From Pseudomonadota bacterium (lineage in GTDB: Bacteria > Pseudomonadota > Gammaproteobacteria > Burkholderiales > Burkholderiaceae_C), in assembly GCA_041169755.1 (NCBI GenBank), contig JBEEIS010000135.1:8439-72438 (forward strand): DNA of 64,000 bases. The letters run 5' to 3'. A program made the position numbers and the translations under genes. A model generated the notes under the pieces. That model did no database searches, was not told the DNA's origin, and saw nothing but the letters and a program-made list of their open reading frames with translations. Shown piece after piece: positions 9,757-34,213 of the stretch; positions within the stretch are counted from its first letter, which is position 1; each line of letters starts with the position of its first letter.

Positions 9757-10362
9757 TTGCTGCCCCATCTTGAACCAGCGGATTCGCATCCTGCAGCGGA
9801 TCCGGGCACGACCCGTCCCGGCGGCCGACAGCTCAGCGACTCCGACGAGGCTCTGTTCAAGCAACTCGTCCACTCCCACCACCAGCGCCTGTACCGTTTC
9901 GTGGTGAAGCACATCGGCTGGAGTTCGGACGCCGAAGACATCACCCAACAGGCATTCGTCGAGGCCGCGCAAAGTTTCGCCACCTTCAAGGGCCAGTCCG
10001 AGCTCTCCACCTGGCTTTACGGCATCGCCATGAACCTGGTGCGCAACTACCTGTCCCGATCGCCGCATCGGCGTTATGCCTTCGAAGGAGAAGACGCACT
10101 CGCCGAAACCAGCTGCGCGCGTCCCACCCCTTTCGAACAACTCGCCCAATCTGAAACCGTCCGAGCGCTCGAGCAGGCCCTCGCGGAGCTAGCGCCTGAA
10201 ATGCGAGACGTCCTGCTACTGGTCGGCATGGACGAAATCAGCTACGAAGACGCGGCCGTCATGCTCTCCATCCCGATCGGAACCGTCCGCAGCCGGGTCT
10301 CACGCGCGCGCAGTGCACTGCGCAAGCGCTTCAACGCGCAAAACATCGACCTGGGCTTCTGA
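9757..10362 (+). CDS. ECF sigma factor, HrpL/BtrS-like
   Basis: Region 2 DAEDITQQAFVEA...STWLYGIAMNLVRN; region 4 SYEDAAVMLSIPIGTVRSRVSRAR; TTG start with GGAG SD; embedded in the T3SS locus. Confidence 0.9.
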   Translation: MLPHLEPADSHPAADPGTTRPGGRQLSDSDEALFKQLVHSHHQRLYRFVVKHIGWSSDAEDITQQAFVEAAQSFATFKGQSELSTWLYGIAMNLVRNYLSRSPHRRYAFEGEDALAETSCARPTPFEQLAQSETVRALEQALAELAPEMRDVLLLVGMDEISYEDAAVMLSIPIGTVRSRVSRARSALRKRFNAQNIDLGF

Positions 10363-28318: not shown

Positions 28319-30421
28319 ATGCGAGCACTTCAATCCCGGATCCAGGCCCTGGCCCTTGCGGCGTCCAACCGCAACGACATCGTATTGGCCGTGATGCTGG
28401 TGGCGATCGTCTTCATGATGATTCTGCCGCTCCCCACCTGGCTCGTCGACATCTTGATCGGTATCAACATGACCTTGTCGGCCATGCTGCTGATGGTGGC
28501 GATGTACCTGCCCTCGCCACTGGCTTTTTCGAGTTTCCCCTCGGTGCTGCTGGTGTCCACCCTTTTCCGACTGGGCATTTCGATCGCCACCACGCGCTTG
28601 ATCCTGCTGCAGGGCGATGCAGGTCATATCGTCCAGACCTTCGGCAATTTCGTGGTGGGTGGCAATCTGGTGGTGGGCCTGGTGGTGTTCCTGATACTAA
28701 CCATCGTTCAGTTCATCGTGATCACCAAGGGGGCCGAGCGCGTCGCCGAGGTGGGGGCCCGGTTCTCGCTGGATGCGATGCCTGGCAAGCAGATGTCGAT
28801 CGATGGCGATATGCGGGCGGGCACCATCGATATGGAGGAAGCCAAGCGGCGCCGGCGCCTGGTGGAAAAAGAGAGCCAGCTGTATGGCGCGATGGACGGC
28901 GGCATGAAATTCGTCAAGGGTGATGCAATCGCCGGCCTGATCATCGTGGCGGTGAACCTACTGGGCGGAATTCTGATTGGAACTCTCCAACGCGGCATGT
29001 CCCTGAGCGACGCGGCCAGGACTTACTCGGTACTCACCATCGGTGACGGCTTGATCGCGCAGATTCCGGCGCTTTTCATTGCCATCTGCGCAGGCATGAT
29101 CGTGACTCGCGTGCAAAGCGACGAGGACGTCTCGAACGTCGGACGCGACATCGGCTCACAGATCCTGGCCGAGCCACGCGCCCTCATCATCGCTGCGGCT
29201 GTAGCCCTGGGCATGGGGTTGATCCCTGGGATGCCGACACTGACCTTCCTGGCCTTGGCCGCGTTGCTCGGCGGGATCGGCTGGATCGTTTTGCGTCGAG
29301 GCGCGGCGCAGCGGGCCGGAAAGAGCGACGACGTCATGGCGATACCCGGACTGAAAGCTGCTGGCGATAGACGCAGGGTCGGCCGCAGCGATACGCCCGA
29401 GGAATTCACGCCAACCTCGCCACTGATCATCGACGTCTGCGCAGGCCTGCGCGCAAGCATCCAGGCCGACGACCTGAACAACGAGCTGGTGATGATCCGC
29501 CGCGCCCTGTACTCCGACCTCGGCGTCCCCTTCCCAGGCATCCATCTGCGCTTCAATGAAGCTCTCCCGGCCGAGACGTACCAGATCTTGCTCTCAGAGG
29601 TGCCGGTGGCTCGGGGCCAGTTGCGTCCCGACTTCCTGCTGGTACGCGAGCGGATCGAGCACCTGCAAGCACTGCGTATCCCCCACGAGACGGGCGACGG
29701 CTTCCTACCCGACATCCCGACCGTCTGGGTCGCCGCCAGTCTGAAGGCGTCCCTGGTCCAGGACGGTATTTCGTTCATGGCACCGGGCCAGGTGCTCGGC
29801 TACCACCTGGCCCTGGTGCTCAAACGGTATGCATCGGACTTTCTAGGCATCCAGGAGACCAAGTTCCTGATGTCGTCCATGGAAGCGAGTTTCCCTGACC
29901 TGGTCCGTGAGGCGACCCGAGTGCTGCCGATCCAGAAGATCGCCGAGATCCTGCAACGCCTCGTCTCCGAGGAGATCTCTGTGCGCAACCTGCGTTCGGT
30001 GCTCGAAGCACTGATCGAGTGGGGGCAAAAAGAGAAGGATTCAGTGTTGCTGACCGAATACGTGCGGTCGAACCTCAAGCGTCACATCAGCCACAAATTT
30101 TCCAGTGGCCAGAACGCCTTGCCGGCCTACCTGCTCGCACCAGGCGTGGAAGACATGCTGCGTAGCGCGATCCGCCAGACCAGTGCCGGCAGTTATCTGG
30201 CCCTGGATCCCGCCAATAGCAAGCGGGTGGTCGAGGCGATCCGTCTGACAGTAGGTGACCTGTCACGGAGCACCCACAAGCCTGTGCTCCTGACTTCCAT
30301 GGACATACGGCGCTACCTGCGCAAGATGATCGAATCGGAGCTGTATGAGCTGCCGGTCCTGAGCTACCAGGAGCTGACGCAAGAGATCAATATCCAGCCG
30401 CTGGCCCGGGTCGACCTTTGA
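28319..30421 (+). CDS. sctV: T3SS export gate (LcrD/BcrD/FHIPEP family)
   Basis: ILPLPTWLVD, ITKGAERVAEVGARFSLDAMPGKQMSIDGD, GAMDGGMKFVKGDAIAG, VLSYQEL. Confidence 0.98.
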   Translation: MRALQSRIQALALAASNRNDIVLAVMLVAIVFMMILPLPTWLVDILIGINMTLSAMLLMVAMYLPSPLAFSSFPSVLLVSTLFRLGISIATTRLILLQGDAGHIVQTFGNFVVGGNLVVGLVVFLILTIVQFIVITKGAERVAEVGARFSLDAMPGKQMSIDGDMRAGTIDMEEAKRRRRLVEKESQLYGAMDGGMKFVKGDAIAGLIIVAVNLLGGILIGTLQRGMSLSDAARTYSVLTIGDGLIAQIPALFIAICAGMIVTRVQSDEDVSNVGRDIGSQILAEPRALIIAAAVALGMGLIPGMPTLTFLALAALLGGIGWIVLRRGAAQRAGKSDDVMAIPGLKAAGDRRRVGRSDTPEEFTPTSPLIIDVCAGLRASIQADDLNNELVMIRRALYSDLGVPFPGIHLRFNEALPAETYQILLSEVPVARGQLRPDFLLVRERIEHLQALRIPHETGDGFLPDIPTVWVAASLKASLVQDGISFMAPGQVLGYHLALVLKRYASDFLGIQETKFLMSSMEASFPDLVREATRVLPIQKIAEILQRLVSEEISVRNLRSVLEALIEWGQKEKDSVLLTEYVRSNLKRHISHKFSSGQNALPAYLLAPGVEDMLRSAIRQTSAGSYLALDPANSKRVVEAIRLTVGDLSRSTHKPVLLTSMDIRRYLRKMIESELYELPVLSYQELTQEINIQPLARVDL

Positions 30422-30478
30422 GACCGATACGCGCACATCACCCCGGATGCGCTCCAGCATCCAGAAGGACCTGAGCTG

Positions 30479-30814
30479 TCAGAAGTGCCTGAGGGCGTCC
30501 TGCGCGTTGTCGGTAACGGCGAACAGGTCCAGAAAGCCGCTCATCTCGAAGACGCCGCGGACCTCCTCGCGCAGGCCGCATAACACCAGCTGCCCCTGCG
30601 CTGCGCGCAACTTTTTTCCCGTCACGAGGATGACCCGTAGCCCCGCTGAACTGATGTAGTCCACGTCCGACAAGTCCAGGACCATTCGGGTGCTGCCGGC
30701 CTGCAGGCGCTCCAGGACGGAGGCTTCGAAGGCTGGGGAGGTGGCGCTGTCCAGTCGCCCCGAGGGCCGAAGGATGGCGATGTCACTGCCGGGGGTTTCG
30801 CAAGTGGAGCTCAT
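30479..30814 (-). CDS. STAS anti-sigma factor antagonist (RsbV/BtrV-like)
   Basis: GRLDSATSPAFE, DLSDVDYISSAGLRVIL with the phosphorylatable Ser, VFEMSGF. Confidence 0.92.
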   Translation of the reverse strand: MSSTCETPGSDIAILRPSGRLDSATSPAFEASVLERLQAGSTRMVLDLSDVDYISSAGLRVILVTGKKLRAAQGQLVLCGLREEVRGVFEMSGFLDLFAVTDNAQDALRHF

Positions 30815-30858
30815 GCACTTCTTTCCTAATGCTGAAGGCTGTAGTGTAATTACTTCGT

Positions 30859-32148
30859 ATGAATCGCGACAGTATGCTGGAGCTGCGTGTCTTGAGCGGT
30901 ACCCATTCGGGGGCCCGGGCGCTGCTGGCTGCATCGCCTCAAGTCATCGGGAGCGGTGAGAACTGTGCCCTGATCCTGTCCGACGAAGGCGTCCTGGCCC
31001 AGCACGCCAGCCTCGAGCATCAAGCGGACGGCAGCACCGTGTTGCGCTGGCTCAACAGTGAAATGTCGCCCTTGATCGTGCGGCCGGGCCAGGGGGCGCA
31101 AATGGGCCCGGTTCGGGTGGCGATTGAGCAGATCGACACGCCGTGGCGAGAAGATGTTCCTATCCTGGTGCCGCCCCCGGCGCAGCCCTCGCCTCAGGTG
31201 TCCGAGCGCCGAACCGGGCTCAGCCCCAACCAGGTGCTGCTGCGTACTGGGGCGATGCTGGCGGTCCTGGCCCTGCTGGGCTTGGTCTTCTGGGCCGGCC
31301 TGACCATCCTCCAGGAGGCGCCCGACGCCCCGCAAGACATCGCGAGTTCGGCCGGCCCAGCGGCAAGCTCGGACCACGCGCTGGCCCTCGCTATCGCTCG
31401 GCTAGGACTTGCCGGCCGTGTACGCATCGACCGCACCGATCCGCAGTCGCCTGCAGTCAGCGTGGGGTTCCTGCCTGAGGAGGACATGCTGGCCTTGGCA
31501 CAAGAGTTGTCCCGGTTGTCGCCCCGCCCCCGGCTGGTCCGGGCGGATGAGTCGGAGTTGGTGAACGCAGTGACACAAGCGGTCCAGCAGCTGGCGGGGC
31601 CGGGTTTACCGGCCACTGCGCGCTACCTCGGAAACGGACGATTCCGCCTGGAGGGGCGCGTGACCGACGAAGTCCATCGCGCCCGTGTGATCGCCCAGCT
31701 GGAGCGGGAGTTTCCCTTTGCCGCAGGTTTCGAGTCGAACCTCACAACGCAGGCAGATGGCGCAGCCGCCATGCTCGAGGCGTTACGGCGACAGGGCCTG
31801 GGGCGAATCCACGGCGAGTGGACCGAGGGCATGCTGGTCCTGGAGGTCACGCTGGCCCCCGGCGACCAGGTCCGCTGGGAACAAGCGCTGCTGGCGGTAG
31901 CAACGCGCCACGATCTGCCCTTCAGGGCGCAGGTGCGATTGCAACCCGGTACGCAGCGGCCGACAGCCGCCGAGCTTCCGTTCACCATCCGAAGTGTTGT
32001 CAACAGCCCCCTGCCGCACGTGACCCTTTCTGACGGTCGCAAGCTGATGGCGGGCGGACGGCTGGACGGGTGGCAGCTCCAGGAGATCGGAGCAAGTCAC
32101 TTGGTACTCGACGGCCCTCAGGGCCAACGAATCACGATGGAGAGATGA
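30859..32148 (+). CDS. sctD: T3SS inner membrane ring protein (YscD/BscD)
   Basis: FHA-like N-terminus LRVLSGTHSGA...IGSGENCALILSD, single TM helix, C-terminal PLPHVTLSDGRKLMAGG. Confidence 0.9.
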   Translation: MNRDSMLELRVLSGTHSGARALLAASPQVIGSGENCALILSDEGVLAQHASLEHQADGSTVLRWLNSEMSPLIVRPGQGAQMGPVRVAIEQIDTPWREDVPILVPPPAQPSPQVSERRTGLSPNQVLLRTGAMLAVLALLGLVFWAGLTILQEAPDAPQDIASSAGPAASSDHALALAIARLGLAGRVRIDRTDPQSPAVSVGFLPEEDMLALAQELSRLSPRPRLVRADESELVNAVTQAVQQLAGPGLPATARYLGNGRFRLEGRVTDEVHRARVIAQLEREFPFAAGFESNLTTQADGAAAMLEALRRQGLGRIHGEWTEGMLVLEVTLAPGDQVRWEQALLAVATRHDLPFRAQVRLQPGTQRPTAAELPFTIRSVVNSPLPHVTLSDGRKLMAGGRLDGWQLQEIGASHLVLDGPQGQRITMER

Positions 32149-32366
32149 AGATGACACCAGCATTGACTGAACTCGAAGAACGCCTGGCGGGGCCCGACGG
32201 CGAAGCGGTCCGGATGACTTCGATCGCGGCCATCGCCGCCTTGCAAGCCCGTTGCCGAGCAGAGCCAGGTGACACGCGGCTCGATCCCATCGAGCTGAGT
32301 CGGATCAGGATCCTGCGGACGGCCTGCGAAGCCGCATTCAGGACATTGAAAGCTCAACCGCGGTAA
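32145..32366 (+). CDS. YscE-like needle co-chaperone
   Basis: MTPALTELEERLAG...; about 73 aa, between sctD and the needle gene. Confidence 0.7.
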   Translation: MKMTPALTELEERLAGPDGEAVRMTSIAAIAALQARCRAEPGDTRLDPIELSRIRILRTACEAAFRTLKAQPR

Positions 32367-32411
32367 ACAGTCGCTGCGTCTTGCTCAACCACCCATGGAA
32401 AGGAAACTGCC

Positions 32412-32654
32412 GTGCCCTCCACTAGCTTCAGCCCTCTGTACTCGCTTGAAAAACTCACCCTCGCCGTCAATGCCAGAAAAGGGCCATTGGATACTCAGAT
32501 CCAAGCCATGGGAACCAACACCGAGCCCATGACACCTGACCAGGCAATGCAGTTCAATTACAACGTGTCCAACTACAACCTGATGGCGCAACTGGCCGCC
32601 GACGTGCAGAAGAACATCTGGGACACGCTCAGGAGCATCATGAGCAAGACCTGA
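32412..32654 (+). CDS. sctF: T3SS needle subunit (YscF/BscF)
   Basis: 80 aa, PMTPDQAMQFNYNVSNYNLMAQLAADVQKNIWDTLRSIMSK helix-turn-helix; after sctD-yscE. Confidence 0.85.
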   Translation: MPSTSFSPLYSLEKLTLAVNARKGPLDTQIQAMGTNTEPMTPDQAMQFNYNVSNYNLMAQLAADVQKNIWDTLRSIMSKT

Positions 32655-32764
32655 CAGGCGCTCCTGGCAGGGCGCCTGCGCCACCGCCGCGCGGGGACCG
32701 CGCGGCGGACCTTGTTTATTGATGAGCAGGTTACCATCCGACCCCTGTGTGCACAGGCGTCGCG

Positions 32765-33259
32765 ATGCCCCCCTCACCTGCCTCAACCCGTCCGTCCTTT
32801 CAGGCCGTACAACCCAGCCGGATTTCTGAGTTCGAGGGCTTGGTCCGTGCGCTGACCGCCTGGTGCAATGAGGCGCAGGTACCACCGCAGACCGTAAGCC
32901 GACTGGTCCTGGTACTCGACGAGTTGTTTACGAACATCGTGGTCCACGGCTACCGCGAAGACCCCCATGGCGAGATCGTGGTGCAAGCCCAGGTGCGTGA
33001 CGGGGCGGTGGACGTTACGCTGACCGACCACGCGCCCGCCTTCAATCCCCTGCTCGTGCCGGAGACGGACACCACCCTCTCCCTGGAGGCGCGTCCTCTC
33101 GGTGGACTCGGCTTGCTTTTCGTGCGCAACACGTCGGATGAGTTGCGCTACCAGCTGCTCACGGACGCGCCCCAGGCAAAAAACTGGCTGCAGTTCACGC
33201 TGAAATTCGGTGCAGGCGGCAACCAACTCCGGGACCACGCGCTCGCCAGACCGCGATAG
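32765..33259 (+). CDS. RsbW/BtrW-like anti-sigma factor Ser kinase (HATPase_c)
   Basis: N-box LDELFTNIVVHG, D..PAFNP, G2 box GGLGLLFV. Confidence 0.92.
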   Translation: MPPSPASTRPSFQAVQPSRISEFEGLVRALTAWCNEAQVPPQTVSRLVLVLDELFTNIVVHGYREDPHGEIVVQAQVRDGAVDVTLTDHAPAFNPLLVPETDTTLSLEARPLGGLGLLFVRNTSDELRYQLLTDAPQAKNWLQFTLKFGAGGNQLRDHALARPR

Positions 33260-33271
33260 CGGCAAGGCGCG

Positions 33272-34213
33272 CTACGCGCTGGCCAGGGTCAGCAGCCCCT
33301 CACGTGGCGTCGGAAAGCGAAGCCGTACGCGCAGCTCCCGTTTCAGGCGCCGGTTGACGAGGCGGCGGGACTCCCCCATGAAACTCAGGAGCATGAGGGG
33401 CAATTCGGATTGCGCTGCGTCGCGCGCAATTCTGCGGGGACGCGGTAACCCGTACAAATCGGCGGCGAGTTCGAAGTAATCGCCCATCTTCAATTCGCCG
33501 TCATCGCTGGTGTTGTAGGCCCGCTGCGCCCACCCGCGCCACAGGGCTGCAACCGCGGAACGAGCGAGGTCGTCGGCGTGGATGTGGTTGGTATAGACAT
33601 CGTCCTGCGCCTGCAGCACAGGGGTACCGCGCAAGAGCCTTTCGCGCGGCGTGCCACCGGGTCGATCCGGAGCATAGATGCCAGGCACCCGCAATACGTT
33701 GATCCGGGTGCCATGGGTACGGCCGAAGTGCCGCACCAGCGCTTCGGCATCGGCCCGGCGCTGCGCGCGCGGGGTGGACGGTGCAATGGGTCTCGATTCC
33801 GCAACCTGCGCACCCGCGCAATCGCCGTACACGCCACTGGTCGAGGCATAGGTGAAAGACTTCGGGAGACTGCGCCGTCCCAAGGCGCGGAGCAGGGCCT
33901 GGGTACGCAGGTCTCGCCACCACTGGGGCTGATTCTCGGCGGAGGACGGCGGCGCCAGGTGGACGATGCGTGTGGCCAAGCCCGCCAACCGGGCGAGGCT
34001 GGCCGGGTGATCCAGGTCACCCGCCAGGGGCGTGATACCGCGACTGCGCAAGAGGGGCGCACGCTCGGGGCTGGAGGTCAGCGCCATCAGCCGGACCTGC
34101 GCGCCCTGCATGCGGGCCACGCGCAGGCCGATATCGCCGCAACCGACGATCAGGAGACGCTCGCGGCGAAAGCGCGCGGGCAAGGCGCCGAGGGGACTCT
34201 GGTTTGAGGGCAA
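33272..34213 (-). CDS. NAD-dependent epimerase/dehydratase (extended SDR)
   Basis: LIVGCGDIG, YASTSGVYGD, LRVPGIYAP, IHADDLA. Confidence 0.9.
   Translation of the reverse strand: MPSNQSPLGALPARFRRERLLIVGCGDIGLRVARMQGAQVRLMALTSSPERAPLLRSRGITPLAGDLDHPASLARLAGLATRIVHLAPPSSAENQPQWWRDLRTQALLRALGRRSLPKSFTYASTSGVYGDCAGAQVAESRPIAPSTPRAQRRADAEALVRHFGRTHGTRINVLRVPGIYAPDRPGGTPRERLLRGTPVLQAQDDVYTNHIHADDLARSAVAALWRGWAQRAYNTSDDGELKMGDYFELAADLYGLPRPRRIARDAAQSELPLMLLSFMGESRRLVNRRLKRELRVRLRFPTPREGLLTLASA

Follow-up and report, generated by a model that had tools for sequence, protein, structure and literature searches.

A BtrV/BtrW-like partner-switching pair in a Bordetella-type type III secretion island and its probable chromosomal dCache-PP2C phosphatase

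The two genes that flank sctD-yscE-sctF in the window, the whole 64,000-nucleotide stretch of DNA analysed here, encode a STAS protein and an RsbW-type kinase that probably form a BtrV/BtrW-like partner switch whose island phosphatase was lost and which a dCache-PP2C phosphatase encoded on another contig (C96) would reset in trans. The host genome, a MAG of 3.18 Mb (91.7% complete, 196 contigs), belongs to the Ramlibacter/Caenimonas group and, judged by sequence comparison, the island in the window is homologous to the Bordetella/Achromobacter bsc-btr locus. A preliminary description of the window had left two options, reset by a phosphatase encoded elsewhere or a one-way switch. The former is favoured with somewhat better than even confidence, based on a 1:1:1 inventory of phosphatase, kinase and STAS genes, on phosphatase orthologues that are linked to kinase genes and on purifying selection. 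The finding adds a variation in gene layout to a known system, an incremental step and not a new mechanism.

The STAS and kinase genes in their island

The STAS gene (30479..30814, minus strand) encodes a single-domain protein of 111 aa that matches Pfam STAS over residues 11-107 (E=4.7e-23; STAS_2, E=3.9e-14) and whose top PDB sequence matches are SpoIIAA-type antagonists (4hyl, 1.8e-18; 1th8_B, 2.9e-11). The predicted phosphorylation site, S56 in DYISSAGL, aligns with the first serine of the SpoIIAA DSSGL motif, which we take to be phospho-Ser58 in B. subtilis SpoIIAA numbering. D47, Y53, S55, S56, A57, G58, L59 and R60 are invariant across nine STAS orthologues, and in domain, size and phosphorylatable serine the protein is a stand-alone STAS of the RsbV/SpoIIAA type, as had been proposed from its SSAGL motif. 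It is 44-47% identical to the STAS proteins of the btr-like loci of Achromobacter, Yanghanlia and Castellaniella, the loci on which homology to btr components was measured in place of Bordetella itself.

The kinase gene (32765..33259, plus strand) encodes a BtrW/RsbW/SpoIIAB-type serine kinase or anti-sigma-like protein of 164 aa; its RsbW-like assignment is confirmed by Pfam HATPase_c_2 (E=4.4e-23) and by PDB matches to SpoIIAB (1.7e-7) and RsbW (7.9e-6). The N-box LDELFTNIVVHGY is present and aligns with that of SpoIIAB, and the G2 box GGLGL (residues 112-116) aligns with SpoIIAB SGMGF. The G1 box reads DHAPAF in place of DxGxG, with both glycines replaced throughout the subfamily, and ATP binding and kinase activity are therefore predictions. 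Family members encoded in operons with phosphatases carry the same DxAxxF variant, which implies that phosphorylation occurs. Identity to the BtrW-like proteins of the Achromobacter, Yanghanlia and Castellaniella loci is about 27-28%. The Pfam and PDB matches uphold the partner-switching identity that had been put forward for the pair within a Bordetella-like T3SS island.

The STAS gene is placed antisense between two structural genes. It converges with sctV, which encodes the export gate (28319..30421, plus strand; Pfam FHIPEP, 2.5e-234), with 57 bp between the stop codons, a spacer in which no strong (bidirectional) terminator was found (fold z only -1.35 and -1.84). On its other side it diverges from the inner-membrane ring gene sctD (30859..32148, plus strand; Pfam Yop-YscD_cpl, E=1.5e-9, and conserved synteny), and the 44-bp AT-rich spacer between the start codons, CTGTAGTGTAATTACTTC, is kept in the closest relatives. 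Next on the plus strand are a 73-aa ORF (32145..32366) assigned to yscE by position only, without a Pfam match and with weak tblastn similarity to the equivalent ORFs of relatives, and the needle subunit gene sctF (32412..32654), for which the T3SS_needle_F match (E=5e-4) is below the gathering score and the position is conserved. Between sctF and the kinase gene lies an intrinsic-terminator-like hairpin of 11 G-C pairs followed by a U-rich tract (32684..32719, plus strand), and the RNA fold of 32650-32730 reaches -47.5 kcal/mol (z = -4.34). A by-eye reading of the alignment places a hairpin and T-run of different sequence at the same site in L003 and L041. The pair had been described as split across the structural operon: ORF coordinates and Pfam matches bear out that the two genes flank sctD-yscE-sctF, but the kinase gene is not part of the operon, since the strong hairpin and U-run separate it from sctF. 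Additionally, an alignment of kinase upstream regions revealed a conserved element, GAGCAGGTTACCATCCGAC (32724..32742, plus strand), at a distance of 23-41 nt ahead of the kinase start codon, which is common to the phosphatase-less islands L003, G385 and G401, occurs in a looser form in the SpoIIE-bearing island of Ramlibacter sp. MAHUQ-53 and may serve the kinase gene itself as promoter or operator. A sigma-70 promoter scan of 30200-33500 returned no sites.

The kinase gene is the last gene of the island, at its far edge and about 22 kb from a BtrS-like ECF sigma gene at the opposite end (9757..10362, plus strand; Pfam Sigma70_r2/r4_2), whose product is a possible output partner of the switch. 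This sigma factor is 45-53% identical to that encoded by the sctC-adjacent ECF gene of the Achromobacter, Yanghanlia and Castellaniella loci, and the ORF upstream of it (9155..9709, plus strand; no Pfam match), in the position of the secreted anti-sigma BtrA, is 37-39% identical to the ECF-adjacent ORF of the Alcaligenaceae btr-like loci, to whose SctC the window SctC is 47-58% identical. Besides Alcaligenaceae, the island family is present in Comamonadaceae and Oxalobacteraceae, where the order sctV, antisense STAS, sctD is kept. A kinase search across the family sampled it too thinly, at about one genome per genus (301 in all), and returned distant kinases only (31-42% identity); the informative search was at genus level. 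The arrangement of the STAS and kinase genes around sctD-yscE-sctF was found again in at least nine related genomes, which excludes a chance juxtaposition. Sister islands share their chromosomal site with the window island (epimerase, Fer2 reductase, TctC), and the region is labile, with deletions of the whole island in G307, G318 and G403.

Loss of the island phosphatase and the chromosomal candidate

The absence of a PP2C/SpoIIE gene from the window, as noted in the preliminary description, extends to the whole of contig C135, which contains the window and gave no SpoIIE or PP2C_2 match in a profile search. Earlier-branching sister islands do carry a phosphatase, a 2TM-SpoIIE: in MAHUQ-53 (L005), G384 and G374 a CesT chaperone gene and a SpoIIE gene of 400 aa lie between sctF and the kinase gene, and in the G365 and Diaphorobacter islands the phosphatase gene is nearby. 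A rooted SctV tree groups all SpoIIE-less islands (the window, L003, G385, G401, G400 and G352) in a single derived clade (support 89/85) that arises within a SpoIIE-bearing grade, a topology indicating that the island phosphatase was lost once, in the ancestor of this clade. This tree was used for polarisation in place of the kinase phylogeny, which did not resolve loss versus gain (10 of 15 inner branches open). A tblastn search of the window genome for traces of island-type SpoIIE and CesT genes matched only the C96 PP2C domain (43% over 244 aa), and no pseudogene was found in the 110-bp spacer between sctF and the kinase gene. Since the loss, the kinase and STAS genes have been kept under purifying selection, with dN/dS of 0.10-0.30 and 0.14-0.32, respectively, and of 0.10 and 0.18 in the least saturated pair.

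A search of the genome returned exactly one SpoIIE-family gene, a single-copy chromosomal gene for a dCache-TM-PP2C phosphatase on contig C96 (G000:C96:22859-24925; Pfam SpoIIE, 6.8e-51), whose chromosomal neighbourhood is conserved (thiolase, PP2C, rfbA). Its SpoIIE domain, at about residues 445-688, has the metal-binding Asp motifs and the PP2C fold, 15 orthologues all keep the catalytic residues D474, D477, D492, D613, D665 and D666, and Foldseek matched the AF2 model (pLDDT 80.9) to the phosphatase domains of RsbU, SiaA, RssB, SpoIIE and RsbX (E=1e-11 to 1e-14). The putative sensor matches Pfam dCache_1 (E=1.8e-9) at 37.9 bits, under the 45-bit cut-off, and the model resembles the dCache ligand-binding domains of PctA/PctD (E~1e-8, TMt 0.69-0.73). 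The overall architecture is that of the Achromobacter BtrU-like protein, the phosphatase of the btr locus with dCache_2, HAMP and SpoIIE, and PP2C domain identity to the Achromobacter, Yanghanlia and Castellaniella loci is 39-41%.

The inventory of the window genome comprises one SpoIIE gene (on C96), one RsbW-type kinase gene and one RsbV-type STAS gene. The remaining STAS proteins are MlaB, encoded in the mla operon, and three SulP transporters; the first of these, a small protein encoded on C19, was considered as an alternative substrate and rejected because its gene is the mlaB of an mlaFEDCB-type operon. The same 1:1:1 inventory was found in G385, G401, G400 and G352 (90-93% complete), and no T3SS-bearing genome of at least 90% completeness lacks a SpoIIE gene. 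In MAHUQ-53 (99% complete) two SpoIIE genes accompany a single kinase/STAS pair, and both phosphatases therefore probably act on the same STAS protein. A link between the C96-type phosphatase and this kinase family is seen in two T3SS-less genomes, Caenimonas terrae (G415) and G072, in which kinase genes, with products 40-43% identical to the window kinase, are immediately followed by full-length phosphatase orthologues (45% identity); in G072 a STAS gene completes the kinase-phosphatase operon.

All four other genomes surveyed that have a phosphatase-less island inherited the C96-type phosphatase along with it, a co-occurrence limited to a single clade of the genus and thus confounded by phylogeny. 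The phosphatase also persists intact in the island-deleted genomes G307, G403 and G354, as well as in G376, and is thus not strictly dependent on the island STAS protein. The island ECF-type promoter box GGAACC-N14-17-YYAC is absent upstream of the STAS, kinase and C96 genes alike, so that no regulatory link between the C96 phosphatase and the island is apparent. Judged from sequence, the C96 phosphatase is most likely the stand-in for the lost island phosphatase.

Reset in trans and alternative explanations

For reset in trans, it is envisaged that the kinase would phosphorylate the STAS protein on Ser56 and that a PP2C phosphatase would take the phosphate off; the phosphorylation state would then set whether STAS and the kinase bind one another or a third partner, and this choice of binding may gate T3SS output post-transcriptionally, as in Bordetella. 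The remaining input would be the C96 protein, with its predicted periplasmic dCache sensor, two transmembrane helices and PP2C domain, through which an extracytoplasmic small-molecule cue would act on the switch. Such a sensor on the phosphatase makes plausible the earlier suggestion that secretion may be linked to host signalling. A more elaborate version of this scheme is put forward tentatively and is less probable than reset in trans as such: the switch would be rewired, with the chromosomal dCache-PP2C as its sole reset input and a transcriptional layer added by the antisense STAS gene. In relatives the same STAS/kinase pair would be served by both the dCache-PP2C and the 2TM-SpoIIE of the island, or by the latter alone, and STAS synthesis would be disturbed by transcription reading through from the structural operon.

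Two alternatives differ from this reading in how, or whether, phosphorylation of the STAS protein is reversed. A phosphatase other than that of C96, either an Stp/PrpC-like PP2C_2 enzyme encoded on contig C1 or a SpoIIE protein encoded in the unassembled ~8% of the genome, is an unlikely agent of reset. The PP2C_2 match (C1:7636-8205, E=1.6e-15) adjoins a Hanks-type Ser/Thr kinase ORF. Stp-type phosphatases normally act on substrates of Hanks kinases and not on STAS proteins. Even though the 91.7% completeness of the MAG and its 196 contigs leave room for a missed gene, four further members of the clade, 90-93% complete, likewise have only the C96-type SpoIIE, and with five of five genomes alike a common assembly gap is unlikely. 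Rather improbable is a phosphatase-independent, one-way switch, in which STAS phosphorylation would be irreversible and reset would come only from synthesis, dilution or proteolysis of the STAS protein, or in which the switch would operate by ATP/ADP-dependent binding alone. The island and window without PP2C, a C96 phosphatase that shares no regulatory motif with the island and an antisense position in which STAS synthesis could be tuned by transcriptional interference all fit such a switch. Against it, island-bearing genomes of at least 90% completeness all keep at least one SpoIIE gene, five genomes of the SpoIIE-less clade encode no other RsbV-type substrate for their single SpoIIE protein, and orthologues of the C96 phosphatase are found elsewhere in operons with the same kinase family. 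As a btrU-type gene is co-inherited elsewhere in the island lineage and sister islands still carry SpoIIE, the one-way option of the preliminary description loses ground, and its counterpart, a phosphatase encoded elsewhere, gains support from the sole SpoIIE gene on C96 and its co-inheritance in four other genomes.

A further explanation, to which we give little credence, dispenses with phospho-signalling: the pair would be decaying or re-purposed, for example with the kinase as a non-catalytic binder or anti-sigma of the BtrS-like ECF factor and the STAS protein as its stoichiometric antagonist. The degenerate G1 ATP-binding box (DHAPAF), the lability of the region with its deletions of the whole island and the presence of an ECF sigma gene in the same island are in keeping with this. 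However, both ORFs are intact with dN/dS of 0.1-0.3, the phosphorylatable serine and its surrounding motif are invariant, and the DxAxxF variant occurs in family members that share operons with phosphatases. In addition, the antagonist of BtrS in Bordetella is BtrA and not BtrW (PMC7498569), and an ORF in the BtrA position is present here.

Comparison with known partner switches

The Bordetella T3SS has been known since 2004 to require BtrU, BtrW and BtrV (Mattoo 2004 and Kozak 2005, reviewed in PMC7498569 and PMC8256260), and the output of this partner switch is unknown (PMC7498569). The switch is needed for secretion while its input signal and target are both unknown, and the island family described here offers a way in. 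The partner-switch module is older and more widespread than Bordetella, with a fixed STAS position between sctV and sctD and a modular phosphatase input that is island-encoded, a chromosomal Cache sensor, or both. Testable handles are the phosphatase that resets STAS, the periplasmic ligand of the Cache sensor and SctV or SctD as a possible partner, and they could be addressed in environmental bacteria that are non-pathogenic and in part cultivable, for instance Ramlibacter sp. MAHUQ-53. If the rewired scheme is true, the series of phosphatase layouts would be a ready-made comparative system for finding BtrW/BtrV-type targets.

The likeness to the Bordetella Btr system comprises a STAS protein with the phospho-Ser motif, a SpoIIAB/RsbW-type kinase, a SpoIIE-family PP2C, a Ysc-family T3SS, a BtrS-like ECF sigma and an adjacent BtrA-position ORF; the Achromobacter locus additionally shares a Cache-sensor PP2C, the type of the only SpoIIE protein of the window genome. 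The Alcaligenaceae loci are ordered SctC, ECF, ORF9155-like, PP2C, kinase, STAS, which agrees with Table 3 of the Bordetella review (PMC7498569). The three Bordetella genes form a cluster next to btrS. In the window, by contrast, the STAS gene lies in antisense orientation between sctV and sctD and the kinase gene follows a terminator-like hairpin, and the phosphatase gene is on another contig. Separate loci in a T3SS-bearing bacterium are also known for RsbU/RsbW/RsbV1/RsbV2 of Chlamydia trachomatis, where the membrane protein RsbU combines a periplasmic sensor domain with a PP2C domain (PMC11619594). That system differs in its proposed target (sigma-66 and the developmental cycle), its two RsbV paralogues and the lack of synteny with T3SS genes.

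One of the best structural matches to the C96 protein is the PP2C domain of SiaA (6k4e, E=5e-14, TMt 0.81). In Pseudomonas aeruginosa SiaA counteracts a small kinase on a STAS-like target, but the SiaA/SiaB/SiaC system is encoded in a single operon, has a diguanylate cyclase and cell aggregation as its output and is unrelated to T3SS. Finally, the sigma-B module of B. subtilis has two input phosphatases, RsbU and RsbP, which act on RsbV, and its output is a sigma factor, whereas none is established for the window switch. By analogy only, MAHUQ-53, with two SpoIIE proteins of different architecture and one STAS/kinase pair, can be viewed as a comparable switch with two inputs, of which the window lineage retains one.

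Partner-switching genes within the secretion island

The source MAG of the Ramlibacter/Caenimonas group (3.18 Mb in 196 contigs, 91.7% complete) carries a complete Ysc-family T3SS island at positions 9155-33259 of the window. It begins with ORF9155 (9155-9709), which has no Pfam match, and an ECF sigma factor gene (9757-10362). The minus strand encodes sctC, a CesT-type chaperone gene and sctU, T, S, R, Q, P, O, N, L, K, J and I, the plus strand sctW, tyeA, sycN, yscX, yscY and sctV (28319-30421), and a translocon and chaperone block also lies within the island. An RsbV-like STAS ORF (30479-30814, minus strand; Pfam STAS, 4.7e-23; SpoIIAA-type matches in PDB) and an RsbW-like kinase ORF (32765-33259, plus strand; HATPase_c_2, 4.4e-23; SpoIIAB and RsbW in PDB) enclose sctD, an ORF in the yscE position and sctF. 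The preliminary description had placed the two genes on either side of sctD-yscE-sctF with no phosphatase in the window, and this arrangement is borne out by the Pfam and PDB matches and by a contig-wide search, in which the SpoIIE and PP2C_2 profiles gave no match across contig C135. Its wording that the pair is split across the structural operon is refined by two details, the STAS gene being antisense and the kinase gene being located beyond a hairpin from sctF.

In the motif DYISSAGL, the STAS protein has Ser56 where SpoIIAA has its phospho-serine in the alignment, and residues D47, Y53, S55, S56, A57, G58, L59 and R60 are invariant across nine orthologues. The antisense STAS gene is 57 bp from sctV, stop to stop, and 44 bp from sctD, start to start. 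The 44-bp spacer between the divergent starts (30815-30858) contains an AT-rich block, CTGTAGTGTAATTACTTC, which the two closest relatives share unchanged and which can still be recognised in islands further off. This block may represent a shared or overlapping promoter; should it drive sctD, that mRNA would be nearly leaderless.

In the kinase, the N-box and the G2 box are present, and the G1 box reads DHAPAF rather than DxGxG in the alignment with its PDB matches; given this degenerate box, kinase activity is only putative. Between sctF and the kinase gene, RNA folding detects a strong hairpin followed by a U-tract (32684-32719; -47.5 kcal/mol, z = -4.3), and by eye the two closest relatives have a hairpin with a T-run at the same position but of other sequence. 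Since this element follows sctF and a conserved element, GAGCAGGTTACCATCCGAC, lies 5' of the kinase start codon, the kinase gene looks like a transcription unit of its own at the island edge.

A single chromosomal SpoIIE-family phosphatase

The preliminary description had suggested a phosphatase encoded elsewhere as one way of resetting the switch, and the genome search supports this: exactly one SpoIIE-family gene was found in the 91.7% complete MAG, at C96:22859-24925, and it is co-inherited within the lineage. Its 688-aa product matches SpoIIE (6.8e-51) and, below threshold, dCache_1 (1.8e-9), and its catalytic Asp motifs are invariant across 15 orthologues. In the AlphaFold model (pLDDT 80.9), a long TM helix precedes an alpha/beta sensor domain, the putative dCache region at about residues 50-345; beyond a second TM helix and its linker comes the cytoplasmic PP2C domain (about residues 445-688). 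Foldseek matched the PP2C domain to the RsbU domain of Rv1364c, SiaA, RssB, SpoIIE and RsbX, and the sensor to the dCache ligand-binding domains of PctA and PctD.

The inventory of the genome is equally small for the partners, as its only RsbW-type kinase and only RsbV-type STAS gene are the two in the window. Another small STAS protein was rejected as RsbV-type because it is MlaB inside an mla operon, and three further STAS matches are domains of SulP transporters. The sole other PPM-type gene, on contig C1, adjoins a Hanks-type kinase. The same 1:1:1 inventory of SpoIIE, kinase and STAS is found in G385, G401, G400 and G352, and in the window's clade no other STAS substrate is encoded for the single SpoIIE phosphatase. 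The cultivable relative Ramlibacter sp. MAHUQ-53 has two SpoIIE genes, one in the island and one of the C96 type, for one kinase/STAS pair, and G365 has the island type only. At least one SpoIIE phosphatase is kept in all island-bearing genomes of at least 90% completeness. Co-occurrence of the C96-type phosphatase with the island is confined to one clade, and no shared ECF promoter box linking the C96 gene to the island was found.

The C96-type gene occupies a conserved chromosomal site (thiolase, PP2C and one or two solute-binding-protein genes), usually close to L2HG oxidase or rfbA/rfbC. Most relatives have one or two genes for periplasmic solute-binding proteins between it and rfbA; these are lost in the subclade of G000 (the window genome), G386, G385 and G401. 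In the window genome, the dCache-PP2C gene overlaps the rfbA start by 4 bp (C96:21951-24925), and because of this overlap it is probably the first gene of an operon that continues with rfbA and rfbC (dTDP-rhamnose).

Island layouts in related genomes

By protein searches and contig look-ups, the island was found in several assemblies, each time at one and the same chromosomal site (epimerase, Fer2 reductase, TctC). Among the 118 species genomes of a genus survey, which included Ramlibacter sp. MAHUQ-53 (G388) and Caenimonas terrae (G415), 25 have a kinase homologue. Exactly ten encode an SctV that is at least 75% identical (G000, G385, G388, G384, G365, G374, G401, G352, G400 and G390), the same genomes that carry the island-type kinase. 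Mapping of 20-kb stretches by tblastn distinguished four layouts. Layout (a) resembles the window and is without an island phosphatase (stretch L003, G385, G401, G400, G352 and, partially, G390). Layout (b) differs in that sctF and the kinase gene are separated by genes for CesT and a ~400-aa 2TM-SpoIIE protein on the opposite strand (MAHUQ-53, G384, G374); in G365 and Diaphorobacter caeni, the phosphatase is found within 8-16 kb. Layout (c), without T3SS, clusters the kinase, dCache-PP2C and solute-binding-protein genes (Caenimonas terrae, G072). Here, a C96 orthologue (45% identical over its full length) comes immediately downstream of a kinase gene whose product has 40-43% identity to that of the window; in G072 a STAS gene stands in the same cluster, after the solute-binding-protein gene, and in C. 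terrae the STAS gene is ~35 kb off. In layout (d), the whole island is deleted from this chromosomal site (G307, G318, G403), and what is left is a chimeric ORF in which codons 1-88 of the ECF sigma gene are fused in frame to codons 63-148 of the kinase gene. Three island-deleted genomes keep the dCache-PP2C gene; in a fourth, G318, it is broken into two ORFs.

The chimeric ORFs (L051:6063-6584, L052:6066-6446 and L053:13785-14228, in G307, G318 and G403, respectively) are intact, encode 181-190 aa comprising sigma region 2 and the C-terminal kinase half, and adjoin an ORF9155 homologue; the deletion junction (…STWLY|…DP.G…) is common to all three species. The MAHUQ-53 island and the deletion remnants both have a 554-aa ORF without Pfam match after the kinase gene, and the window genome has a homologue on another contig (C54:63090-64466; 30% over 483 aa).

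Acidovorax soli, Diaphorobacter caeni and a Janthinobacterium MAG likewise have an antisense STAS gene between sctV and sctD. In A. soli (L059:5578-7677), the gene order continues with yscE, sctF, a 699-aa ORF and CesT-type chaperone genes, and neither kinase nor SpoIIE gene was detected within 10 kb on the sctF side. A second T3SS class of the same genus (L152-L155, from G381, G311, G359 and G321; SctV 66-68% identical) contrasts naturally with the STAS-bearing one: sctV is directly followed by sctD, without a STAS gene between them or a kinase gene nearby. In an SctV tree rooted on this STAS-less class, the layout (a) islands form one clade (support 89/85) nested among layout (b) islands, which form a grade (Diaphorobacter, G365, G388, G384). 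Because of this nesting, the simplest reading of the tree is that the island CesT-SpoIIE pair was lost once, in the common ancestor of the clade to which the window belongs. A kinase tree lacked the resolution to polarise loss against original absence.

Operation of the switch and known systems

That the kinase/STAS pair is a decaying remnant is disfavoured, because every clade member has both ORFs intact, the phospho-Ser motif does not vary, and dN/dS is 0.10 for the kinase and 0.18 for STAS in the least saturated pair (0.10-0.32 in the window's closest subclade; up to ~0.57 for the kinase against the more distant G400, where dS is saturated). The preliminary description had also considered a one-way switch without phosphatase, to be abandoned if a btrU orthologue proved to be co-inherited. 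The lineage does have a co-inherited SpoIIE gene, for a predicted Cache-sensor protein built like the phosphatase of the Achromobacter btr locus, and local SpoIIE genes are present even in sister islands; the one-way switch is therefore disfavoured. We consider it reasonably probable that the pair is a Btr-like partner switch and that the chromosomal dCache-PP2C provides its resetting phosphatase in trans. Weighing against this reading are the co-occurrence in a single clade, the survival of the phosphatase gene after island loss, the lack of a common ECF promoter box, the degenerate G1 box and the incompleteness of the MAG. Its output could be the ECF sigma factor, SctV, SctD or something else.

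The two-phosphatase design of the Bacillus sigma-B pathway offers a functional analogy. Another is RsbU of Chlamydia, a PP2C with a periplasmic sensor to which the rsbV genes are not linked (PMC11619594). Of known systems, BtrU/W/V of Bordetella comes closest, being alike in components and T3SS context, but here the genes are arranged differently and the phosphatase gene is not linked to the others. The output of the Bordetella switch is likewise not established (PMC7498569, PMC8256260). Loci of Alcaligenaceae (Achromobacter, Yanghanlia, Castellaniella) follow the order SctC, ECF, ORF9155-like, PP2C, kinase, STAS, in agreement with the table of the Bordetella btr locus (PMC7498569). ORF9155 is 37-39% identical to the ORF adjoining the BtrS-like ECF sigma gene in these loci, consistent with a BtrA-position protein. 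The Achromobacter btr-locus phosphatase (dCache_2, HAMP, SpoIIE; 704 aa) is similar in overall design to the C96 protein. In layout, the arrangement described here is a variant of an already known kind of system.
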